This document shows positions 170-15,555 of a stretch of DNA of 24,114 nucleotides, one piece after another. Source of the DNA: a virus (lineage: Duplodnaviria; Caudoviricetes); IMG/VR virus record IMGVR_UViG_3300017902_000255, positions 1-24,114 of that record. One strand, written 5' to 3'. A program made the translations under genes and the position numbers. The notes under the pieces are model-generated. The model was not told the DNA's origin, did not search any database, and saw only the letters and a list, made by a program, of their open reading frames with translations. Position 1 is the stretch's first letter. The number at the start of each line of letters is the position of its first letter.

Positions 170-253
170 TTTGTGTTTGTTTGATCTATAAGTATATTAG
201 TCCATAGTGGCAAAAAAGCAACGAGCAGATGTGCCACTAATAAAATTGTCCTA
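170..253 (-). promoter_or_regulatory. composite early promoter copy 1 (palindrome 230-253, -35 TTGCTT 216-221, -10 TAATAT 194-199, leader ACAAACAC 173-180)
   Basis: One of nine aligned copies; 30 nt between palindrome and -10; palindrome arm at 246-253 is degenerate. Confidence 0.8.
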
Positions 254-732: not shown

Positions 733-824
733 TTGAAAAACCTCTGTGTTTGTTGTATATACTAATGATAGTCGAAAATTATCAAAAAGCAACGAGCGAG
801 TGTGACAGAGTTTATACTGTCACA
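733..824 (-). promoter_or_regulatory. composite early promoter copy 2 (perfect-arm palindrome TGTGACAG-agtttata-CTGTCACA 801-824, TTGCTT, TATCAT, leader ACAAACAC 746-753 + GAGG)
   Basis: Direct sequence alignment with the other copies. Confidence 0.85.
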
Positions 825-2012: not shown

Positions 2013-2098
2013 AAAACCTCTGTGTTTGTTATATTCTAATGATAGTCGAATATGGCAATAAAGCAACGAGCAGATGTGCCACTAATAAAATTGGCACA
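2013..2098 (-). promoter_or_regulatory. composite early promoter copy 3 (palindrome 2075-2098, leader ACAAACAC 2022-2029)
   Basis: TGTGCCA-N10-TGGCACA, TTGCTT-16-TATCAT; 34 bp (2060-2093) identical to copy 1 (215-248). Confidence 0.85.
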
Positions 2099-2999: not shown

Positions 3000-3084
3000 A
3001 AAACCTCTGTGTTTGTATATTTGAATTATAGTCGCTGGTGGCAAGAAAGCAACCAGCGAGTGTGACAGTATTTCAACTGTCCTT
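3000..3084 (-). promoter_or_regulatory. composite early promoter copy 4 (palindrome 3061-3084, TTGCTT-16-TATAAT, leader ACAAACAC 3009-3016)
   Basis: Alignment with the other copies; consensus -10. Confidence 0.85.
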
Positions 3085-3415: not shown

Positions 3416-3500
3416 AAGTGTTTGTTTAATTGATGTACTAATGATAATCGAAATAAATTAAAAAGCAACCAGCAAGTGTGACAGTAATATAATTGTCACA
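3416..3500 (-). promoter_or_regulatory. composite early promoter copy 5 (palindrome 3477-3500, leader ACAAACAC 3418-3425)
   Basis: TGTGACA-N10-TGTCACA, TTGCTT-16-TATCAT. Confidence 0.85.
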
Positions 3501-4276: not shown

Positions 4277-4359
4277 GTGTGTTTGTGATCTATACCTATA
4301 TGATAGTCACGATTGGCAATAAAGCAACCAGCGAATGTGCCACTCTCTTAACTGGCACA
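4277..4359 (-). promoter_or_regulatory. composite early promoter copy 6 (palindrome 4336-4359, leader ACAAACAC 4279-4286)
   Basis: TGTGCCA-N10-TGGCACA, TTGCTT-16-TATCAT. Confidence 0.85.
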
Positions 4360-4423: not shown

Positions 4424-5343
4424 TTGAGACTTACTTCTTTTTTCCATTCTTGTCTAGCATTGAAGTTAGCATAAGAGAATTGTTGACGTTTTACAAGTTT
4501 GAATGTACCATATTGATTAGACATTACATAACCCTCATGCTCATAGGGCATATTCTCAAATAAACATTGAACATTCTCTGTAGTAGTGATGCCTTCCATG
4601 AGTAATTCTTTTATCTCAATTATCATATTGTATAAGTGAAATAAGTTTCTGGAATATCCAGTATCACTTGCTAACTTATCAGCATCAAGTGTTTGCCCTG
4701 ATCTGATATAACTATTGATATTTATTTTTAATTGTGAAATATCATCACTCTCTGGAAACTTGACAAATGGTATTACAGTTTTAGCAAGTGTGATAAGTAA
4801 GTTCAATCTGAAATGTCTTTTAGATATTGATGCACTTGTATCAATAAAATGTACACCATAACTTTTAGACTCTCTGTAGTGAAACTCAGCATCTAACTCT
4901 TGTATGGTAGCACCAATATATTGTGTATGAGTAGCAACAACAATATCGTCAATTACATCATCAAATTTATATGTAATTGTGTTTGGTGTGTGGGTATCTG
5001 AACCACCATAACCAATAAAGTCGCCCTGATATATGCCCTCATTCTGTGGCAATCTATCAAGACATATATGTAGAATAGAAGCGACTCTAGGTGTATGTCC
5101 ATGATTAGATTCAATATCAGTATGAGTATAGTTTATCTTGATTCTTCTCTTATTGAATACTGATTTAGTTCCTACAAAGAATTTGCCATTCTCAGGGTTA
5201 GTTCCATATACTATGGCGGGAGCGCCATCATACTTGACGGATACCTGACTCTGTTTAGTATCTAAAAACCTGATAGCATCAAGTGCTCCCTGCTTACCAG
5301 TAAGCACATGATCTTCAATGTGTTCCAAGTGTTTGTTCTTCAT
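4420..5343 (-). CDS. DUF6267-like protein with ligase/nucleotidyltransferase motifs, 307 aa
   Basis: N-terminal KNKHLEHIED, then KYDG (motif I-like), YQGDF, HEGYV and FKLVKR in the order of covalent nucleotidyltransferase motifs; DUF number from memory. Confidence 0.7.
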   Translation of the reverse strand: MKNKHLEHIEDHVLTGKQGALDAIRFLDTKQSQVSVKYDGAPAIVYGTNPENGKFFVGTKSVFNKRRIKINYTHTDIESNHGHTPRVASILHICLDRLPQNEGIYQGDFIGYGGSDTHTPNTITYKFDDVIDDIVVATHTQYIGATIQELDAEFHYRESKSYGVHFIDTSASISKRHFRLNLLITLAKTVIPFVKFPESDDISQLKININSYIRSGQTLDADKLASDTGYSRNLFHLYNMIIEIKELLMEGITTTENVQCLFENMPYEHEGYVMSNQYGTFKLVKRQQFSYANFNARQEWKKEVSLK

Positions 5344-5349
5344 AGAACC

Positions 5350-5378
5350 ATTATAACATAAAAGTGAGAGAGGTTCAA
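5350..5378 (-). promoter_or_regulatory. sigma70-type promoter predicted to give a leaderless mRNA for 4420..5343
   Basis: TTGAAC (5373-5378), 17 bp, TATAAT (5350-5355) with extended TGn; ATG starts 7 nt after the -10. Confidence 0.7.
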
Positions 5379-5423
5379 CTTAAAGGGCATCTTCCTCTGG
5401 GGTCGCCCACCCATGCCTCTCAC
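5360..5423 (-). ncRNA. candidate structured small RNA A (~60 nt)
   Basis: Starts at the predicted +1 of promoter copy 7; GUGAGAG...CUCUCAC closing stem then UUUU; inner GGCAU/AUGCC and GGGU/ACCC pairings; GC-rich relative to the flanks. Confidence 0.55.
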
Positions 5424-5488
5424 ATTTATATAATAGTACATCATGGCAACAATACAACCCTCTGTGTGCCAGTTTGTCAAATGTCACA
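5424..5488 (-). promoter_or_regulatory. composite early promoter copy 7 (palindrome 5465-5488, TTGTAT-16-TATTAT); no ACAAACAC leader
   Basis: TGTGCCA-N10-TGTCACA; 29 nt to the -10. Confidence 0.75.
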
Positions 5489-7854: not shown

Positions 7855-7935
7855 AGTGTTTGTGTCAATAATCATATTATAATAAAAAATGACCCTAGAT
7901 TCTAGGGTCATTGTGACAGTTTTAGAACTGTGCTA
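7855..7935 (-). promoter_or_regulatory. composite early promoter copy 8 (palindrome 7912-7935, -10 TATAAT, leader ACAAACAC 7856-7863; -35 position occupied by a hairpin)
   Basis: TGTGACAG-N8-CTGTGCTA; exactly 30 nt to TATAAT. Confidence 0.7.
7884..7912 (-). terminator. intrinsic terminator-like hairpin
   Basis: Perfect inverted repeat AATGACCCTAGA-T-TCTAGGGTCATT running into a U tract on the - strand. Confidence 0.65.
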
Positions 7936-8097: not shown

Positions 8098-8403
8098 CTA
8101 TCCAATCGGAGGCGCTCCAGCACCGCCATATTGAGCAGGCATAGCGTCCATGTCAAATTTCTTTGATGCTTCCTTTGCTTCAAGTAATCCTTTCAAAGAA
8201 TTGACCTCAATAACAAGTGCAGCAATGTCATCTTGCTGTTTCAATAATGCCGCTTGAACCATTGACTCTAGTGTAGTCAATCTCTCGTCAAGATTGCCAA
8301 TGGTTCTCATTGACGCTTGTAGTTGTTTCTTAAGTCTATCAACTTGACCTAACTTAACTTTTGTTAGTGTCTCTGTATCTGAAGTAAGTGAATCGTAACC
8401 CAT
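8098..8403 (-). CDS. coiled-coil hypothetical protein, 101 aa
   Basis: ORF track; heptad pattern; CTAAATA late-promoter-like box about 20 nt upstream. Confidence 0.8.
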   Translation of the reverse strand: MGYDSLTSDTETLTKVKLGQVDRLKKQLQASMRTIGNLDERLTTLESMVQAALLKQQDDIAALVIEVNSLKGLLEAKEASKKFDMDAMPAQYGGAGAPPIG

Positions 8404-8438
8404 AATTTATTCTTTTTAGTTATTTAGTACGTTATATG

Positions 8439-8885
8439 TTATCTAAGGTAGAGATAACCACCCGCCCAATCACACACGTTGTAGAGTTTTGCTCTGTCAA
8501 TGTCATCACTCATATTGAATCTAACGTGTTTAGCGGGTTGTTTCCACCCTGCTGGTTTATATACTTCTCCTGATAATTTATCAACGAAGCAATGGACGCT
8601 TATGTCATCTTTAAACTGACGATTGACTTGTTTCCAGCGTAGGCAAACTTTGTAGTACTTTCTGCCATTTTCTATGAAAAAACTAATTCTATCATCTTCT
8701 CCAGACTCAATTTGGTTAACCTTTTCCTGTAGATATGGGTCAGGTTTATCTGCCTTATTTTGATTATTAACGATAGAGCGTACTGAATAATCTCTGTATT
8801 GTTGTTCAAGGCAACGACATAGTTTCTCTGTCCATTGAAGCACCTTGACTTTCTGAGTTGCTTGATGAAATACTAAATTTGTCAT
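8439..8885 (-). CDS. conserved cyanophage hypothetical protein, 148 aa (start MTNLVF...)
   Basis: GRKYYKV...SVHCFVDK.SGEVYKPAGWKQPAKHVRF...CDWAGGYLY motif set; ATGA overlap with the upstream gene. Confidence 0.85.
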   Translation of the reverse strand: MTNLVFHQATQKVKVLQWTEKLCRCLEQQYRDYSVRSIVNNQNKADKPDPYLQEKVNQIESGEDDRISFFIENGRKYYKVCLRWKQVNRQFKDDISVHCFVDKLSGEVYKPAGWKQPAKHVRFNMSDDIDRAKLYNVCDWAGGYLYLR

Positions 8886-9151
8886 GTCAAAGTCCAATAA
8901 GTGTGTTTTCCTTTTATGTGTTTTTTAATTAAACCTCTTTTCTTCAATTCTGTTTTGTTCCACCTCAAAGCATATTGCCATTCATATTTAAAATCGCCTA
9001 TAAATTCAATAATGCCTTTCTCCTGATATTGATATAATTTTTTCATTATATCAAGTGTTCTAACAGCAGTGCCGTAATCTTTCATAGCAATGATATACCA
9101 ATCAAATGCCTCTTGTTGAGAGTTCGATTCAATAGTGATAGGAATTTTCAT
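8882..9151 (-). CDS. small basic protein, possible winged-helix DNA-binding domain, 89 aa (start MKIPITIE...)
   Basis: C-terminal WQYALRWNKTELKKRGLIK...YWTL resembles the helix-wing of Mrr N-terminal-like wHTH domains; start moved out of the hairpin. Confidence 0.6.
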   Translation of the reverse strand: MKIPITIESNSQQEAFDWYIIAMKDYGTAVRTLDIMKKLYQYQEKGIIEFIGDFKYEWQYALRWNKTELKKRGLIKKHIKGKHTYWTLT

Positions 9152-9154
9152 AAT

Positions 9155-9200
9155 AAAAAAAGAAGTGGAGCAGAGGAACAAACACAAACCCTCTCTCCAC
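9155..9200 (-). ncRNA. candidate small RNA B (~46 nt), hairpin with loop GUUUGUGUUUGUU antisense to the early-gene leader motif
   Basis: Starts at the predicted +1 of promoter copy 9; stem GUGGAG-AGAGG / CCUCU-g-CUCCAC; 13-nt loop (9177-9189); UUCUUUUUUU tail. Confidence 0.7.
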
Positions 9201-9206
9201 TTCTTT

Positions 9207-9265
9207 ATAATAGTATATTTACTTTTTAAAGGCAACCCCCATGTGACACTCCCAATAATGTCACA
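9207..9265 (-). promoter_or_regulatory. composite early promoter copy 9 (palindrome 9242-9265, TTGCCT-17-TATTAT)
   Basis: TGTGACA-N10-TGTCACA; 29 nt to the -10. Confidence 0.8.
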
Positions 9266-9428
9266 CTCGACCTCTTCGCCCTTCGGACTTTGGATATAAT
9301 GTTATATCCTGTGTTCCGAATCTACCCATTGCTTCTATCTTGGCGTCAGAACCAAAGTTGCTCAGACTTTCAAATTCTGTTGATAGTAGTCTGTTGTCTA
9401 TTTTGACAACTGCTCTCCAAAGTGCCAT
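9261..9428 (-). CDS. small hypothetical protein, 55 aa (start MALWRAVV...)
   Basis: Start reassigned downstream of the leader hairpin; stops inside palindrome 9. Confidence 0.65.
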   Translation of the reverse strand: MALWRAVVKIDNRLLSTEFESLSNFGSDAKIEAMGRFGTQDITLYPKSEGRRGRV

Positions 9429-9443
9429 GATTTTAGTAATAGG

Positions 9444-9511
9444 GTGTCGAGAAACAAAATCCAGTTGCCGCACTCCTATGAAAGGCGCAGGGATAGATTT
9501 GTTTCTCACAC
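9444..9511 (-). ncRNA. long 5' leader hairpin / candidate structured RNA C (68 nt)
   Basis: GUGU/ACAC, GAGAAACAAA/UUUGUUUCUC, UCUA/UGGA and CUGCGC/GUGCGG stacked pairings starting at the predicted +1. Confidence 0.55.
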
Positions 9512-9512
9512 T

Positions 9513-9545
9513 ATTTATTATAGGGCATCATCAATTATTTGGCAA
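9513..9545 (-). promoter_or_regulatory. sigma70-type promoter TTGCCA-17-TATAAT with overlapping late-type ATAAATA
   Basis: Direct reading of the - strand; no palindrome upstream. Confidence 0.7.
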
Positions 9546-10223
9546 CCCCTCTTTTTCATCAAATGCTTTTTTTCTTTCACTCTGGTTAAGATTGACACAT
9601 CGCCACCCATAATCCCCATTGGTAACGATAGTAGGCATAAAGTTCATTGATAACGATATTCTATTGTATCCTGTGTTCTCATCATAACCATGATTCAACT
9701 GTGATGGGAATATGACTAACTCTCCCTCATTCGATAAAACTTCATTGTTTTGATTATACTCTGTAGTTTTTCCTGTGATAAAATTGAGAGCAGGAGCATT
9801 TATAAAATTAGTATCTCTGGTAAAATATGTGGGCACATGATCTCTTGCCATATCAAAATTAACATAGTATATTGCTGACAAATAAGAATTAGCATGATGA
9901 TGGGGATATTGATACCCACCTTTATCTGAAATGTTTATCCAACTATCTGTAACTTGAACTGTCTCTTGTATATAATCTCCCTTGACTTCCTTAGCATACA
10001 ACTCTGCTTGTTGTTCACACCAGTTTCTAAATCTGCCGTATCTCTCATCATTATGTAATACTGAGTAATGACCAATATGTTTTAATTGTTCTGAGTTGGC
10101 ACTATATGTTATTTGATTTTGTTTCTGTTCTTCTATCTCTGCCAGTATAGTTTCTTTTACTTTACTATGAAAGGGGCAAGGTATGATTGCCACTGGCGTT
10201 GGTAGTACGTTAATAACTTCCAT
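9531..10223 (-). CDS. putative 2OG-Fe(II) oxygenase (TIGR02466-like), 230 aa
   Basis: SWINIS..GG.Q.PHHH.NS.LSAIYY, EGELVIFPSQLNH, RISLSMN. Confidence 0.85.
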   Translation of the reverse strand: MEVINVLPTPVAIIPCPFHSKVKETILAEIEEQKQNQITYSANSEQLKHIGHYSVLHNDERYGRFRNWCEQQAELYAKEVKGDYIQETVQVTDSWINISDKGGYQYPHHHANSYLSAIYYVNFDMARDHVPTYFTRDTNFINAPALNFITGKTTEYNQNNEVLSNEGELVIFPSQLNHGYDENTGYNRISLSMNFMPTIVTNGDYGWRCVNLNQSERKKAFDEKEGLPNN

Positions 10224-10224
10224 A

Positions 10225-10926
10225 TTATAAATCAGGATTATCCCATAGTTGTCCAGACCTAAATGTTGTCATGGCAGTGTGTCTCTCATCTTTTGTCAAT
10301 GGCATCACTTCAAAGGAATTAATATATCTAGGCATAAGATTACTGGATATAGTAATTCGATTGTCTGTGTAATTAGTTCCATAACCATGAACACAATTCG
10401 CTGGCCACAACAACAACGAACCTTCCAATCCTACCACCTCATTTATATTATTATACTTGGTATGCTTATGATTAGTCAACATATATGAGTAGTAATCAGG
10501 ATACTTTTGACTATCATTAGGACGATAAAAATAAGTTGGCGAGTGTGACGAATCATCAAAGTTGACATAATATAAAGCACACACAGCGGCATTTATATGG
10601 AAATGTGGTAGTTGTTTACCACCAGCGTCACACACATTTATCCAACTGTCTGTCAGTAGAAAATCTGACGTATCATAACCTAGTATGTCCTTAGCATATA
10701 TCTCTGCCTGTAGTTCTATCCACTCTCTAAACTCTTTGTACTTGTCATTTGATAACGGCGAGTAGTAATCTAAATGTTCAAGTGATTTGGTGACAGCATC
10801 TATTTTTTTGTGTTCGTATTCATCACCATGACTTTGAATCTCATCAATCAATAACGACTTAACTTTATCATGCTCTGGGTACATCACTACACCTAATTGC
10901 ACTGGCAGTATGTCAACTACCCTCAT
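10225..10926 (-). CDS. putative 2OG-Fe(II) oxygenase (TIGR02466-like), 233 aa (start MRVVDILP...)
   Basis: SWINV...GG.Q.PHFH, EGSLLLWPANCVH, RITISSN; clear paralogue of 9531..10223. Confidence 0.85.
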   Translation of the reverse strand: MRVVDILPVQLGVVMYPEHDKVKSLLIDEIQSHGDEYEHKKIDAVTKSLEHLDYYSPLSNDKYKEFREWIELQAEIYAKDILGYDTSDFLLTDSWINVCDAGGKQLPHFHINAAVCALYYVNFDDSSHSPTYFYRPNDSQKYPDYYSYMLTNHKHTKYNNINEVVGLEGSLLLWPANCVHGYGTNYTDNRITISSNLMPRYINSFEVMPLTKDERHTAMTTFRSGQLWDNPDL

Positions 10927-13950: not shown

Positions 13951-15555
13951 ATGGATTTTAATTCTGACTATCAGACAGATTATGAGATAAACTCTAACCC
14001 AGAGCTACAGAGGACTGAGGTAAACCCTTCCGTAGCAAGAGAGATATGTGCCCATGAAAAGGTCTATAAAACTCTTGTAACACTTGGAGACTTTATTTGT
14101 TACGTTTGGTTTCACGATAACGATTATGACGACTCAAGGACGACTGAGGGGTCAAAGAGAATACATATCGTACCTTCTGAGTCAAGAATTGAAGATGAGA
14201 TAAAGATAAACGAATACTTAAATATAGCCAGTAATGTTTTCTCTGAGGGTGTTGTATATGTCAATGCGATCTTTAGAAGAAATGGCACTGCCTTTACTGA
14301 AAATAAAGACTTAAAAGATTGTGTCAAGTATATGACAGGTGTGGCAGCACACTATAATGCTAGTTCAGATAAGATTGTAGCGATAGATGCTGAAGATAAC
14401 GATAGAATGTATGATGTAACCTATGATGTGGCATCAGCAAAAAATTATTCTGATATATCTAATAACGTTCTGGGAGACTTTACCTCTGGAGCAGTGGGTA
14501 ATGGTAGTTTAGATGTATCTAACACCACTCACTTCGCTACTGGAGCGATAGCGTTAAGTGCAATTAATAGTGCATTTACAAGTGGCACAAGTATAGGTGC
14601 ATACTACAGAGGCACAGGCGTAGGTAACATCACGGCAAATAATAATGTACCCACAAGTGGCCCAATATCATTCAGTAATTTAAGAAATGCAGTCAGTAAG
14701 GTCACTGCGACTGCAAATGGTAATTGGATGCACCTACAGGCAAGATATGAGGTATTTGGAGATAACACTTACACCTCGACTGTTACCAAACAACTAAACA
14801 TTGGCGGTAACGTGGGTTCTGATGGCAGTTCTAACCCAGCGATCAGATTCAATAGTGGTGGTAATGGTACAATAACGTTCCAAATCAACAACACGAGTGG
14901 TTCTCCTGTAGTTAGAGGATATGCTGGAGAAAAAGGTATTGGTGGTGGTAATACAGGCGATGGCGGTGGCGGTGGTAAAGGAGATGGCGGAGAGAGTGGC
15001 GGCAAAGGTATGATTGTCTCCTCAACTATATCAATGCCAACATCACACTTCAATAACAGACTCCGAGGCGGTGGCGGCGGAGGAGGCGGTGGCGGCAAGG
15101 GCGGTCAAGGAGGTGGCGGTGGTCACTCAGGCGGTAGAAGATGCTCTGGTTGGTTCTGTCACGGTTCTTACCGTGTTTGTAGTAACAATGGAGGCACAGG
15201 CGGTGGCGGTGGTAACGGCGGCGGAGGAGGCCGAGGTGCTGGATATTACTGGAATGGTTCGAGTTGGGTAGCAAAGAATAGTGGCGAGGGAGGCCAAGGA
15301 GGTCAAGGTGGTTCTGGTGGAGGAACTAACGCTGGTACAGGCGGCACAGGTGGTAATGGTGGTGCTGGTGGTAATTATGAATCTAACGGAGGCGATGGCG
15401 ATACTGGTAACACTGGCAACAATGGTGGTGGCGAACAACAAGGTTGCGGTTCAAATGGTTCTATGACTGGTCAATCAGGTAAAGCTGGTGGTGGTAAGGG
15501 CAGTGGAGCATCAAGACACTCAACCAGTAATGGTGCAAATCTAAATTTAACCTAA
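13951..15555 (+). CDS. glycine-rich putative virion/fibre-associated protein, 534 aa
   Basis: Only long + strand ORF; NVPTSGPISFSNLR motif as in cyanophage fibre-like proteins; C-terminal poly-Gly/GGxGG repeats. Confidence 0.8.
   Translation: MDFNSDYQTDYEINSNPELQRTEVNPSVAREICAHEKVYKTLVTLGDFICYVWFHDNDYDDSRTTEGSKRIHIVPSESRIEDEIKINEYLNIASNVFSEGVVYVNAIFRRNGTAFTENKDLKDCVKYMTGVAAHYNASSDKIVAIDAEDNDRMYDVTYDVASAKNYSDISNNVLGDFTSGAVGNGSLDVSNTTHFATGAIALSAINSAFTSGTSIGAYYRGTGVGNITANNNVPTSGPISFSNLRNAVSKVTATANGNWMHLQARYEVFGDNTYTSTVTKQLNIGGNVGSDGSSNPAIRFNSGGNGTITFQINNTSGSPVVRGYAGEKGIGGGNTGDGGGGGKGDGGESGGKGMIVSSTISMPTSHFNNRLRGGGGGGGGGGKGGQGGGGGHSGGRRCSGWFCHGSYRVCSNNGGTGGGGGNGGGGGRGAGYYWNGSSWVAKNSGEGGQGGQGGSGGGTNAGTGGTGGNGGAGGNYESNGGDGDTGNTGNNGGGEQQGCGSNGSMTGQSGKAGGGKGSGASRHSTSNGANLNLT

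Follow-up and report, generated by a model that had tools for sequence, protein, structure and literature searches.

GcvB, a bacterial and Hfq-dependent RNA (PMC4474525), is described as silencing many mRNAs through C/A-rich, ACA-containing elements just upstream of the Shine-Dalgarno sequence (PMC3879156). In IS10, the loop of RNA-OUT catches the free 5' end of RNA-IN; RNA-OUT is the antisense RNA of one transposon mRNA, with which it forms an extended duplex (PMC4737173). The c4 RNA of the temperate phages P1 and P7 is a phage-encoded antisense RNA whose complementary sequences likely lie in loops; it blocks translation of the ant mRNA near the ribosome site and is linked to immunity between relatives (PMC12197685). 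In the hyperplastic early region of the T4-type phages RB49 and phi1, PeSLs consist of a stem-loop terminator and a sigma70-like early promoter; they are multi-copy, terminate upstream transcription, and end in a Shine-Dalgarno sequence and a start codon (PMC2839356). The ncRNAs listed for T4-like cyanophages are CfrI, a cis-antisense RNA at psbA, and the Rfam families wcaG, manA, glnA, and abiF (PMC12197685, PMC9964418), and according to a review, only a small number of lytic-phage ncRNAs have been characterized (PMC10884466). T4-like cyanophages run early, middle, and late programs but are described as having neither T4 middle promoters nor motA/asiA (PMC5780444).

Here, we report a promoter-hairpin unit in the window, i.e., the whole stretch of 24,114 nucleotides analyzed. 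The virus is a T4-like cyanomyovirus and a relative of Synechococcus phage S-SSM7 (Lipsvirus), and the window covers its early region and part of a tail-fibre region. A blastn search with positions 8400-9700 returned four records, three of them S-SSM7/S-SSM6a at ~72%, and the gene order of the window is the same as in S-SSM7. Early genes lie on the minus strand as cassettes, each with a dyad, a -35, and a -10 element in front. The parts of the unit are as follows:

9265-9242, minus strand: 24-bp dyad TGTGACA-N10-TGTCACA of the early-promoter cassette, read from the sequence; it also precedes other early cassettes
9235-9207, minus strand: sigma70-like promoter with -35 TTGCCT (9235-9230), 17-nt spacer, and -10 TATTAT (9212-9207), from the sequence and a promoter call
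9201-9155, minus strand: candidate RNA of ~47 nt, hairpin plus U-tail, from its fold, 24 distinct cores, and outer-stem covariation
9200-9190, minus strand: 5' arm of the hairpin, from the sequence
9189-9177, minus strand: 13-nt G/U loop with the seed UGUUUGU(U), complementary to the early leader motif, from conservation and accessibility
9176-9165, minus strand: 3' arm of the hairpin with one bulge, from the sequence
9164-9155, minus strand: tail of TTC followed by seven T, from the sequence

The first-pass annotation had placed here a promoter firing into an 11-bp stem with one bulge, a 13-nt loop, and a U-tail; all of these were reproduced from the sequence, the start (~9202-9200, from the promoter) and the termination being predicted. 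We take the cassette of dyad, -35, and -10 in front of the hairpin and its putative targets to be probably the promoter class of Doron et al. 2016 (ISME J 10:1437), where an early-gene regulatory element of T4-like cyanophages is reportedly described. The segment 9201-9155 folds at -18.2 kcal/mol (z -3.7), which was equaled by none of 200 shuffles, and the loop costs only 0.2 kcal/mol to open. The stem reaches further, into AAAGAA upstream of the predicted start. The hairpin has the stem and U-tail of an intrinsic terminator, but its 13-nt loop exceeds the 3-8 nt allowed by the terminator scanner, which called no terminator here. The U-rich tail is present in most of the 24 distinct cores and is weak in two, L136 and L296; some relatives have only four T within 12 nt after the stem. 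The predicted start of the RNA reads AUG-UAA in some relatives and an open frame in others, and in the window it has no AUG; a leader peptide was ruled out, because no frame is conserved among relatives.

The locus resembles GcvB in that one RNA is predicted to act on many mRNAs through an ACA-rich element by the start site, and the GcvB seed is G/U-rich as well. It differs in that the seed is the terminator-hairpin loop of a 47-nt phage unit and the predicted targets are the phage's own early cassettes. It shares with RNA-OUT a loop that would catch a free mRNA 5' end, whereas the unit lies apart from its many predicted targets (1.3-9 kb off, on the same strand) and pairs over 8-12 nt only, so that it is not a cis-antisense RNA of the RNA-OUT or CfrI kind. 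With c4 it has in common the phage origin and the complementarity in a loop, but the predicted target is a motif of about ten early cassettes in a T4-like cyanomyovirus. Unlike the multi-copy PeSLs ending in a Shine-Dalgarno sequence and ATG, the hairpin occurs once in the window and once in the S-SSM7 record, is located past the start site, and has a loop that is conserved. No Rfam 15 family matched at gathering score in the window and seven phage loci, the GcvB, c4, wcaG, manA, glnA, and abiF models included, and therefore no homology to GcvB is indicated; novelty, which the first-pass annotation had left to such a scan, thus holds for the families of Rfam. The best match at the hairpin was a chance miRNA (E 0.98, 20 bits vs 51). 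In its predicted mode of working, the RNA is like a multi-target antisense sRNA, and it is in no catalogued family among those tested.

The loop was originally noted because it contains the reverse complement of a motif shared by early leaders, and the exact match was found at 9178-9185. GTGTTTGT occurs in 10 copies in the window vs 1.69 expected, a number reached in none of 100 shuffles; nine copies read ACAAACAC on the early-gene strand and one is the inverse copy in the loop. The ninth ACAAACAC copy, at 15173, has no promoter. The other eight, all called from the motif and a pairing prediction, are as follows:

173-180, minus strand: leader site ACAAACAC, 3 nt before ATG, predicted 12-bp duplex
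746-753, minus strand: leader site followed by AGAGG, 13 nt before ATG, predicted 12-bp duplex
2022-2029, minus strand: leader site followed by AGAGG, 9 nt before ATG, predicted 12-bp duplex
3009-3016, minus strand: leader site followed by AGAGG, 9 nt before ATG, predicted 11-bp duplex
3418-3425, minus strand: leader site, 2 nt before ATG, predicted 9-bp duplex
4279-4286, minus strand: leader site, 2 nt before ATG, predicted 9-bp duplex
5329-5336, minus strand: eighth site, in codons 2-5 (Asn-Lys-His) of the predicted leaderless DUF6267 gene 5343-4420
7856-7863, minus strand: leader site, 1 nt before the ATG of a ResIII/DEAD helicase gene, predicted 8-bp duplex

Seven leader sites 1-13 nt before an ATG had been claimed; all seven are there, and the count was incomplete by the site at 5329. 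The 12-nt pairing with the leader at 173 (perfect) and with those at 746 and 2022 (one G-U each) was reproduced. The 8-mer that had been named as the pairing element matches too, but what is conserved is a 7-8-mer, UGUUUGU(U) facing (A)ACAAACA, rather than the full 8-mer, with UGUUUGU/ACAAACA as the common seed. All eight motifs begin at +4 to +11 if the start is assumed to be the sixth base after the -10 box, and all eight sites fall within the first ~18 nt of the predicted transcripts; in S-SSM7 the motif is likewise at the extreme 5' end of early transcripts. Such a position might also mean that pairing is protective or activating, i.e., that the RNA keeps host nucleases off the triphosphate-proximal single strand of early mRNAs and prolongs early expression. 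We regard this as very unlikely: the ribosome footprint takes in the four sites that end 1-3 nt before the AUG and the one in the first codons, and pairing there normally blocks initiation. Since all three target layouts lie inside that footprint, repression is favored over stabilization.

The predicted duplexes are short, rich in A/U, and reach -9 to -13 kcal/mol net in the predicted transcripts, with the loop-topology penalty left out. With accessibility counted, the eight window sites rank 1, 2, 3, 5, 7, 8, 10, and 15 among 27 minus-strand sites. Composition-matched permutations of the loop did as well as or better than the real loop in 8 of 715 cases on an imperfect set of seven window leaders (sites 3418, 4279, and 5329 are missing from this set, and the accessibility ranking covers all eight), in 3 of 1500 on 13 S-SSM7 promoters, and in 9 of 1500 for the variant L323. 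For six phages that do not carry the element, the corresponding numbers were 380-960 of 4004. Two of six promoter copies scored weakly because they are without the leader motif. In a seed-prefiltered scan of the 233-kb S-SSM7 record, the best three sites are early leaders and the early region holds 6 of the best 13, while just 7 of the best 32 are early. The expectation that early leaders would rank top for the loop is borne out for the best three predicted sites in the window and in S-SSM7.

For the conservation analysis, a pattern with the loop fixed retrieved 45 IMG/VR loci, a set that presupposes the loop; the DUF7717 protein was therefore used as an anchor, so that loci were chosen independently of the loop. 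The element was present at all 25 loci anchored on the DUF7717 of the window (64-100% identity) and at 21 of 32 loci anchored on that of S-SSM7, i.e., 21/21 at >=70% identity and 0/11 at <=48%. Between the window and S-SSM7, whose DUF7717 proteins are 49% identical, the loop is identical and the stem is different. There are 24 distinct cores across 139 loci, many of the loci being the same contigs retrieved more than once. The 11-nt loop core has an identity of 0.99 over 35 distinct promoter contexts, compared with 0.73 and 0.66 for the arms and 0.47 for the promoter spacer, and only one loop variant, G-to-A, was seen; loss of loop conservation, which the first-pass annotation had named as a refuting outcome, was looked for and the opposite was found. 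A scan for the stem with the loop left free gave 44 matches, 19 of which are the element (14 G-loop, 5 A-loop) with just these two loop forms; the other 25 have unrelated loops and flanks and on that basis were set aside as unrelated hairpins. No micro-inversion of the loop between the arms was seen among these 44 matches. The carriers are kin, and these counts are of non-independent events. Judged by this pattern of change, the element is under selection.

The promoter goes with the hairpin: a TTG and a -10 element stand immediately upstream in 35 of 40 distinct contexts and a dyad half-site in 29 of 40, and in 4 of 40 the hairpin terminates a longer RNA from its promoter. Five relatives carry an additional folded RNA module between promoter and hairpin (~125 nt in L087, L292, and L323; ~60 nt in L136 and L214), so that a longer RNA there has the seed hairpin at its 3' end.

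It might be argued that all this describes an ordinary intrinsic terminator, or a PeSL-type insulator of the upstream transcript, with the loop a frozen accident. Most cores do carry a U-tail, promoter plus stem-loop cassettes occur in T4-type early regions (PMC2839356), and RNA-library contigs of the upstream unit end inside the hairpin in one sample. A terminator, in turn, has no need for a 13-nt loop kept at 0.99 identity while arms and spacer drift, and there is only one copy of the unit, which lies past the start site. From the alignments, loop conservation strongly disfavors the plain-terminator reading, to which we give hardly any weight.

Regarding the stem, the outer six pairs in an alignment of 22 rows are 85.6% paired and 24 cells are changed on both sides, which none of 500 shuffles reached, whereas the number of pairs with double-sided change (4 of 6) is within the shuffle range (142/500); the covariation structure was derived from the tested sequences themselves, which are kin. 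Pattern scripts were used instead of a covariance model, as two stem subtypes differ in register in this alignment. The stems contain 17 G-U pairs when read on the early-gene (minus) strand and 2 on the opposite one, and folding is better on the early-gene strand for 23 of 24 cores, both of which argue for an RNA on the minus strand. The plus-strand sense decoy, raised earlier as an outcome that would refute the proposal, was tested and is rejected on these numbers together with the promoter and U-tail, all of which favor minus. We conclude that the promoter-hairpin unit is a real, selected, RNA-level feature.

Strict compensation between loop and leaders was not seen. The one variant contig with a long early region, the A-loop contig L323, has the matching T at 3 of 9 sites, C at two (CAC), and A at four (CAA), so that strict covariation of loop and leader is not supported by this single loop variant. 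Invariant bases of the loop do face invariant bases of the leader, and the ninth leader position, which varies, lies opposite the only loop position that varies; this points to UGUUUGU(U) vs (A)ACAAACA as the real seed. At the DUF6267 start, AAC AAA CAY is kept in 10 of 10 distinct carrier contexts vs 1 of 5 loci without the element, although AAT, AAG, and CAT are common codons in this genome; the count is weakened by shared ancestry. In the A-loop variant this site reads CAT.

The combination of a covarying stem and an invariant single-stranded loop also marks protein sites, and the U/G loop might be the docking site of a host or phage RNA-binding protein (antiterminator or decoy), with the complementarity being a relic of an inverted leader copy. 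That compensatory covariation was not found and that the leader motif is more widespread than the hairpin would both suit such a site. Yet the correspondence of invariant with invariant and variable with variable positions in loop and leader, the permutation test that singles out the phage's own leaders, and the synonymous codons that preserve the match at the DUF6267 site are difficult to reconcile with it, and we consider a protein site improbable. Five contigs without the hairpin in the span searched have the leader motif at some early genes (3 of 8, 2 of 7, 2 of 6, 1 of 7, and 1 of 8 promoters); the motif is thus not there for this RNA alone. It probably has a role of its own, for instance aiding translation through its A/C-rich sequence, and the hairpin may have been added later.

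The hairpin lies between an upstream transcription unit and genes that seem to depend on read-through:

9545-9261, minus strand: upstream unit with a strong promoter (-10 ending at 9517), a folded leader at ~9509-9442, and a 55-aa ORF at 9428-9261, from a promoter call and RNA contigs
9151-8882, minus strand: 89-aa orphan ORF beginning 4 nt past the U-tail, which would need read-through; many relatives are without it
8885-8439, minus strand: DUF7717 gene, the usual downstream neighbor (Pfam PF24835, E 2.9e-34)

A transcript of the upstream unit would run into the hairpin, and two RNA-library contigs, 9193-9509 and 9196-9509 (both from one sample), end inside it; the hairpin is likely the end of the upstream transcript. 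On the other side, the contig of a relative joins across the 89-aa orphan ORF, and in some relatives DUF7717 is directly behind the hairpin with no room for a promoter of its own. Because the downstream gene is without its own promoter in most contexts, read-through must occur. The hairpin is therefore also the 5' leader of promoterless downstream genes, a role absent from the first-pass annotation.

This arrangement brings up the possibility that the hairpin is a cis-acting leader or sensor of the promoterless gene behind it. Two variants are conceivable: the loop could pair with an adjacent ACAAACA in the read-through mRNA, forming a pseudoknot over the start region, or the 5' ends of early transcripts could bind the loop and alter DUF7717 termination or translation, the early mRNAs then being the signal and not the target. 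DUF7717 usually begins within tens of bases of the hairpin with no intervening promoter, and a pairable target is adjacent in 37 of 50 contexts (33 of 58 in a motif-based count). The A-loop variant is an exact match to its adjacent ACAAACAT, two U-tails are weak as noted, and contigs from two RNA runs of one study extend over both hairpin and downstream ORF, as read-through or DNA would explain. Nevertheless, the loop stays the same in those contexts (13 of 50, including the window) that have no adjacent target, the start of the downstream gene is highly variable (30 distinct N-termini), ACAAACAT also adjoins G-loop relatives, and an adjacent motif is to be expected anyway if the downstream gene is a member of the regulon. 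We hold a purely cis-acting role to be unlikely, and please note that trans and cis roles can coexist.

Thirteen RNA runs hold part of the region, and seven were examined as assembled metatranscriptome contigs, from which ends, strand, and level cannot be read. No discrete hairpin transcript was seen in these contigs, which show neither ends nor strand, and a 47-nt RNA is usually lost from such libraries. In S-SSM7, the annotated start of DUF7717 (SSSM7_041, NC_015287.1 38060-38563) overlaps the hairpin unit, which is at ~38,060-38,110 of that record, so that the annotation hides the RNA; the true start is likely the ATG at ~38138.

Taken together, several features of a trans-encoded base-pairing sRNA are present at this locus: an exposed and conserved seed (the loop and its low opening cost), a promoter of its own and a 3' terminator with no conserved ORF, by prediction, and complementary sites at several unlinked ribosome-binding regions (eight in the window and the best three in S-SSM7). 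Of the trans-acting sRNA proposed in the first-pass annotation, the structured minus-strand RNA, nearly invariant exposed loop, early-type promoter, and leader complementarity are supported by comparison. The reading we prefer, by somewhat better than an even chance, is that a trans-acting antisense sRNA represses early-gene translation and doubles as a leaky terminator. Host polymerase would start at ~9201 and mostly stop at the U-tail, leaving a stable RNA of ~47 nt. The free, unstructured 5' end of an early mRNA, with its motif at +4 to +11, would thread onto the loop as RNA-IN does on RNA-OUT, and an 8-12 bp duplex would form. This duplex would cover the bases just before the AUG at sites 173, 3418, 4279, and 7856, those beside AGAGG at sites 746, 2022, and 3009, and the first codons of the leaderless gene at site 5329. 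With the start region masked, initiation would fall, as when GcvB masks ACA enhancers. As the RNA and its targets share one promoter class, the stable RNA would accumulate with a lag and cap or shut early-protein output, although one hairpin promoter would have to out-titrate ~ten target promoters. Some polymerases would read through the leaky terminator, and DUF7717 would be expressed.

More tentatively, and with the odds rather against it, one 47-nt, chaperone-free hairpin RNA might shut the whole early regulon via a 5' barcode, acting as a timer of the early-to-middle switch in phages without MotA/AsiA and as a brake on later relatives with the same barcode. If this is true, any gene that is shuffled in after an early cassette would come under post-transcriptional control, and cyanobacterial engineering would gain a minimal hairpin-loop repressor. 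With a 47-nt RNA, a 7-8 nt seed, and ~ten targets, a precise and cheap test is possible in the cultured pair S-SSM7/Synechococcus WH8109.

As to how far the unit is distributed, a blastn search of it against 50,697 phage records matched S-SSM7 and S-SSM6a only. The exact loop is missing from four of five whole records searched (P-SSM2, S-RIM8, Syn19, and Syn1). A descriptor search for a dyad-promoter self-terminating hairpin found one in the whole S-SSM7 record, which is this unit, none in S-RIM8, P-SSM2, Syn19, and Syn1, and none in the 20-kb early regions of S-H35, S-RIM2, P-RSM6, and S-SM2, with a descriptor that could miss other shapes. No equivalent early RNA with a loop of its own was found in these representatives of other cyanomyovirus genera. 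Several of the four phages searched in their early regions use a AGAGTCAAAGG-type leader, and S-RIM8 is an example of a phage with AGAGUCAAAGG-type leaders. In the genomes searched, then, the unit is seen only in S-SSM7-like phages. A full-text literature search, the scope of which did not take in Doron et al. 2016, gave no description of this RNA; the loop and leader strings have no match in seven supplementary files of PMC10690425 (files 1 and 2, which may hold it, being outside this set), the words 'small RNA' and 'non-coding' do not occur in the main text of PMC3037559, which covers these genomes, nor do 'antisense' and 'cyanophage' in that of PMC2839356.

In a different phage (L379, 11845-11905), a strong terminator-like hairpin with TGTTTGT in its loop closes a non-coding stretch, and ACAAACA is found at 3 of 4 detected early promoters; this is possibly an independent version and possibly chance. 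A long hairpin at ~49,800-49,870 of S-SSM7 (L231), also seen in L393, L467, L473, L479, and L483, has a loop, GTTGTTTGTTAA, complementary to early leaders. It was rejected as support, because its interior is kept in four contigs and replaced in three and the other strand folds better. In L485, L490, and L510, its outer stem encloses an interior resembling the folded leader of the upstream unit, and a shared outer stem with exchanged interiors suggests swappable RNA modules.

That folded leader (window 9442-9509, minus strand) is closed by GAAACAAA/TTTGTTTC behind a strong promoter and has counterparts in L001 (10185-10250) and P-SSM2 (L072, ~10630-10770), the interior length being very variable among phages. 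Its 3' pattern matches ~390 IMG/VR stretches, some by chance. When the folded leader was used as an anchor, the element was found in 23 of 60 filtered loci by the best-terminator method and in two more by fuzzy scan, and the other loci either are without the element or have flanks of only 300 nt; the folded leader, often without the element, is thus the more widespread of the two.

A further copy of the early promoter, with its dyad at 5465, leads into a folded stretch of ~75 nt at 5345-5418 on the minus strand, closed by GTGAGAGG/CCTCTCTCAC. This stretch is nearly identical in S-SSM7 (L001, ~14360-14430), differs in its interior in L284/L303, and is a candidate second early ncRNA just before the DUF6267 promoter. 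At 7880-7910 (minus strand), a stem-loop and a T-run overlie the -35 region of the helicase promoter; this PeSL-like layout is also seen in S-SSM7, P-SSM2, S-RIM8, S-RIM2, and Syn19. Within the early region, a CTAAATA word, which we take to resemble the T4 late promoter consensus, stands at 8420-8430 (minus strand) before the ORF 8403-8098. A glycine-rich ORF of 534 aa (13951-15555, plus strand) runs opposite to all of its neighbors, as SSSM7_033 does in S-SSM7.
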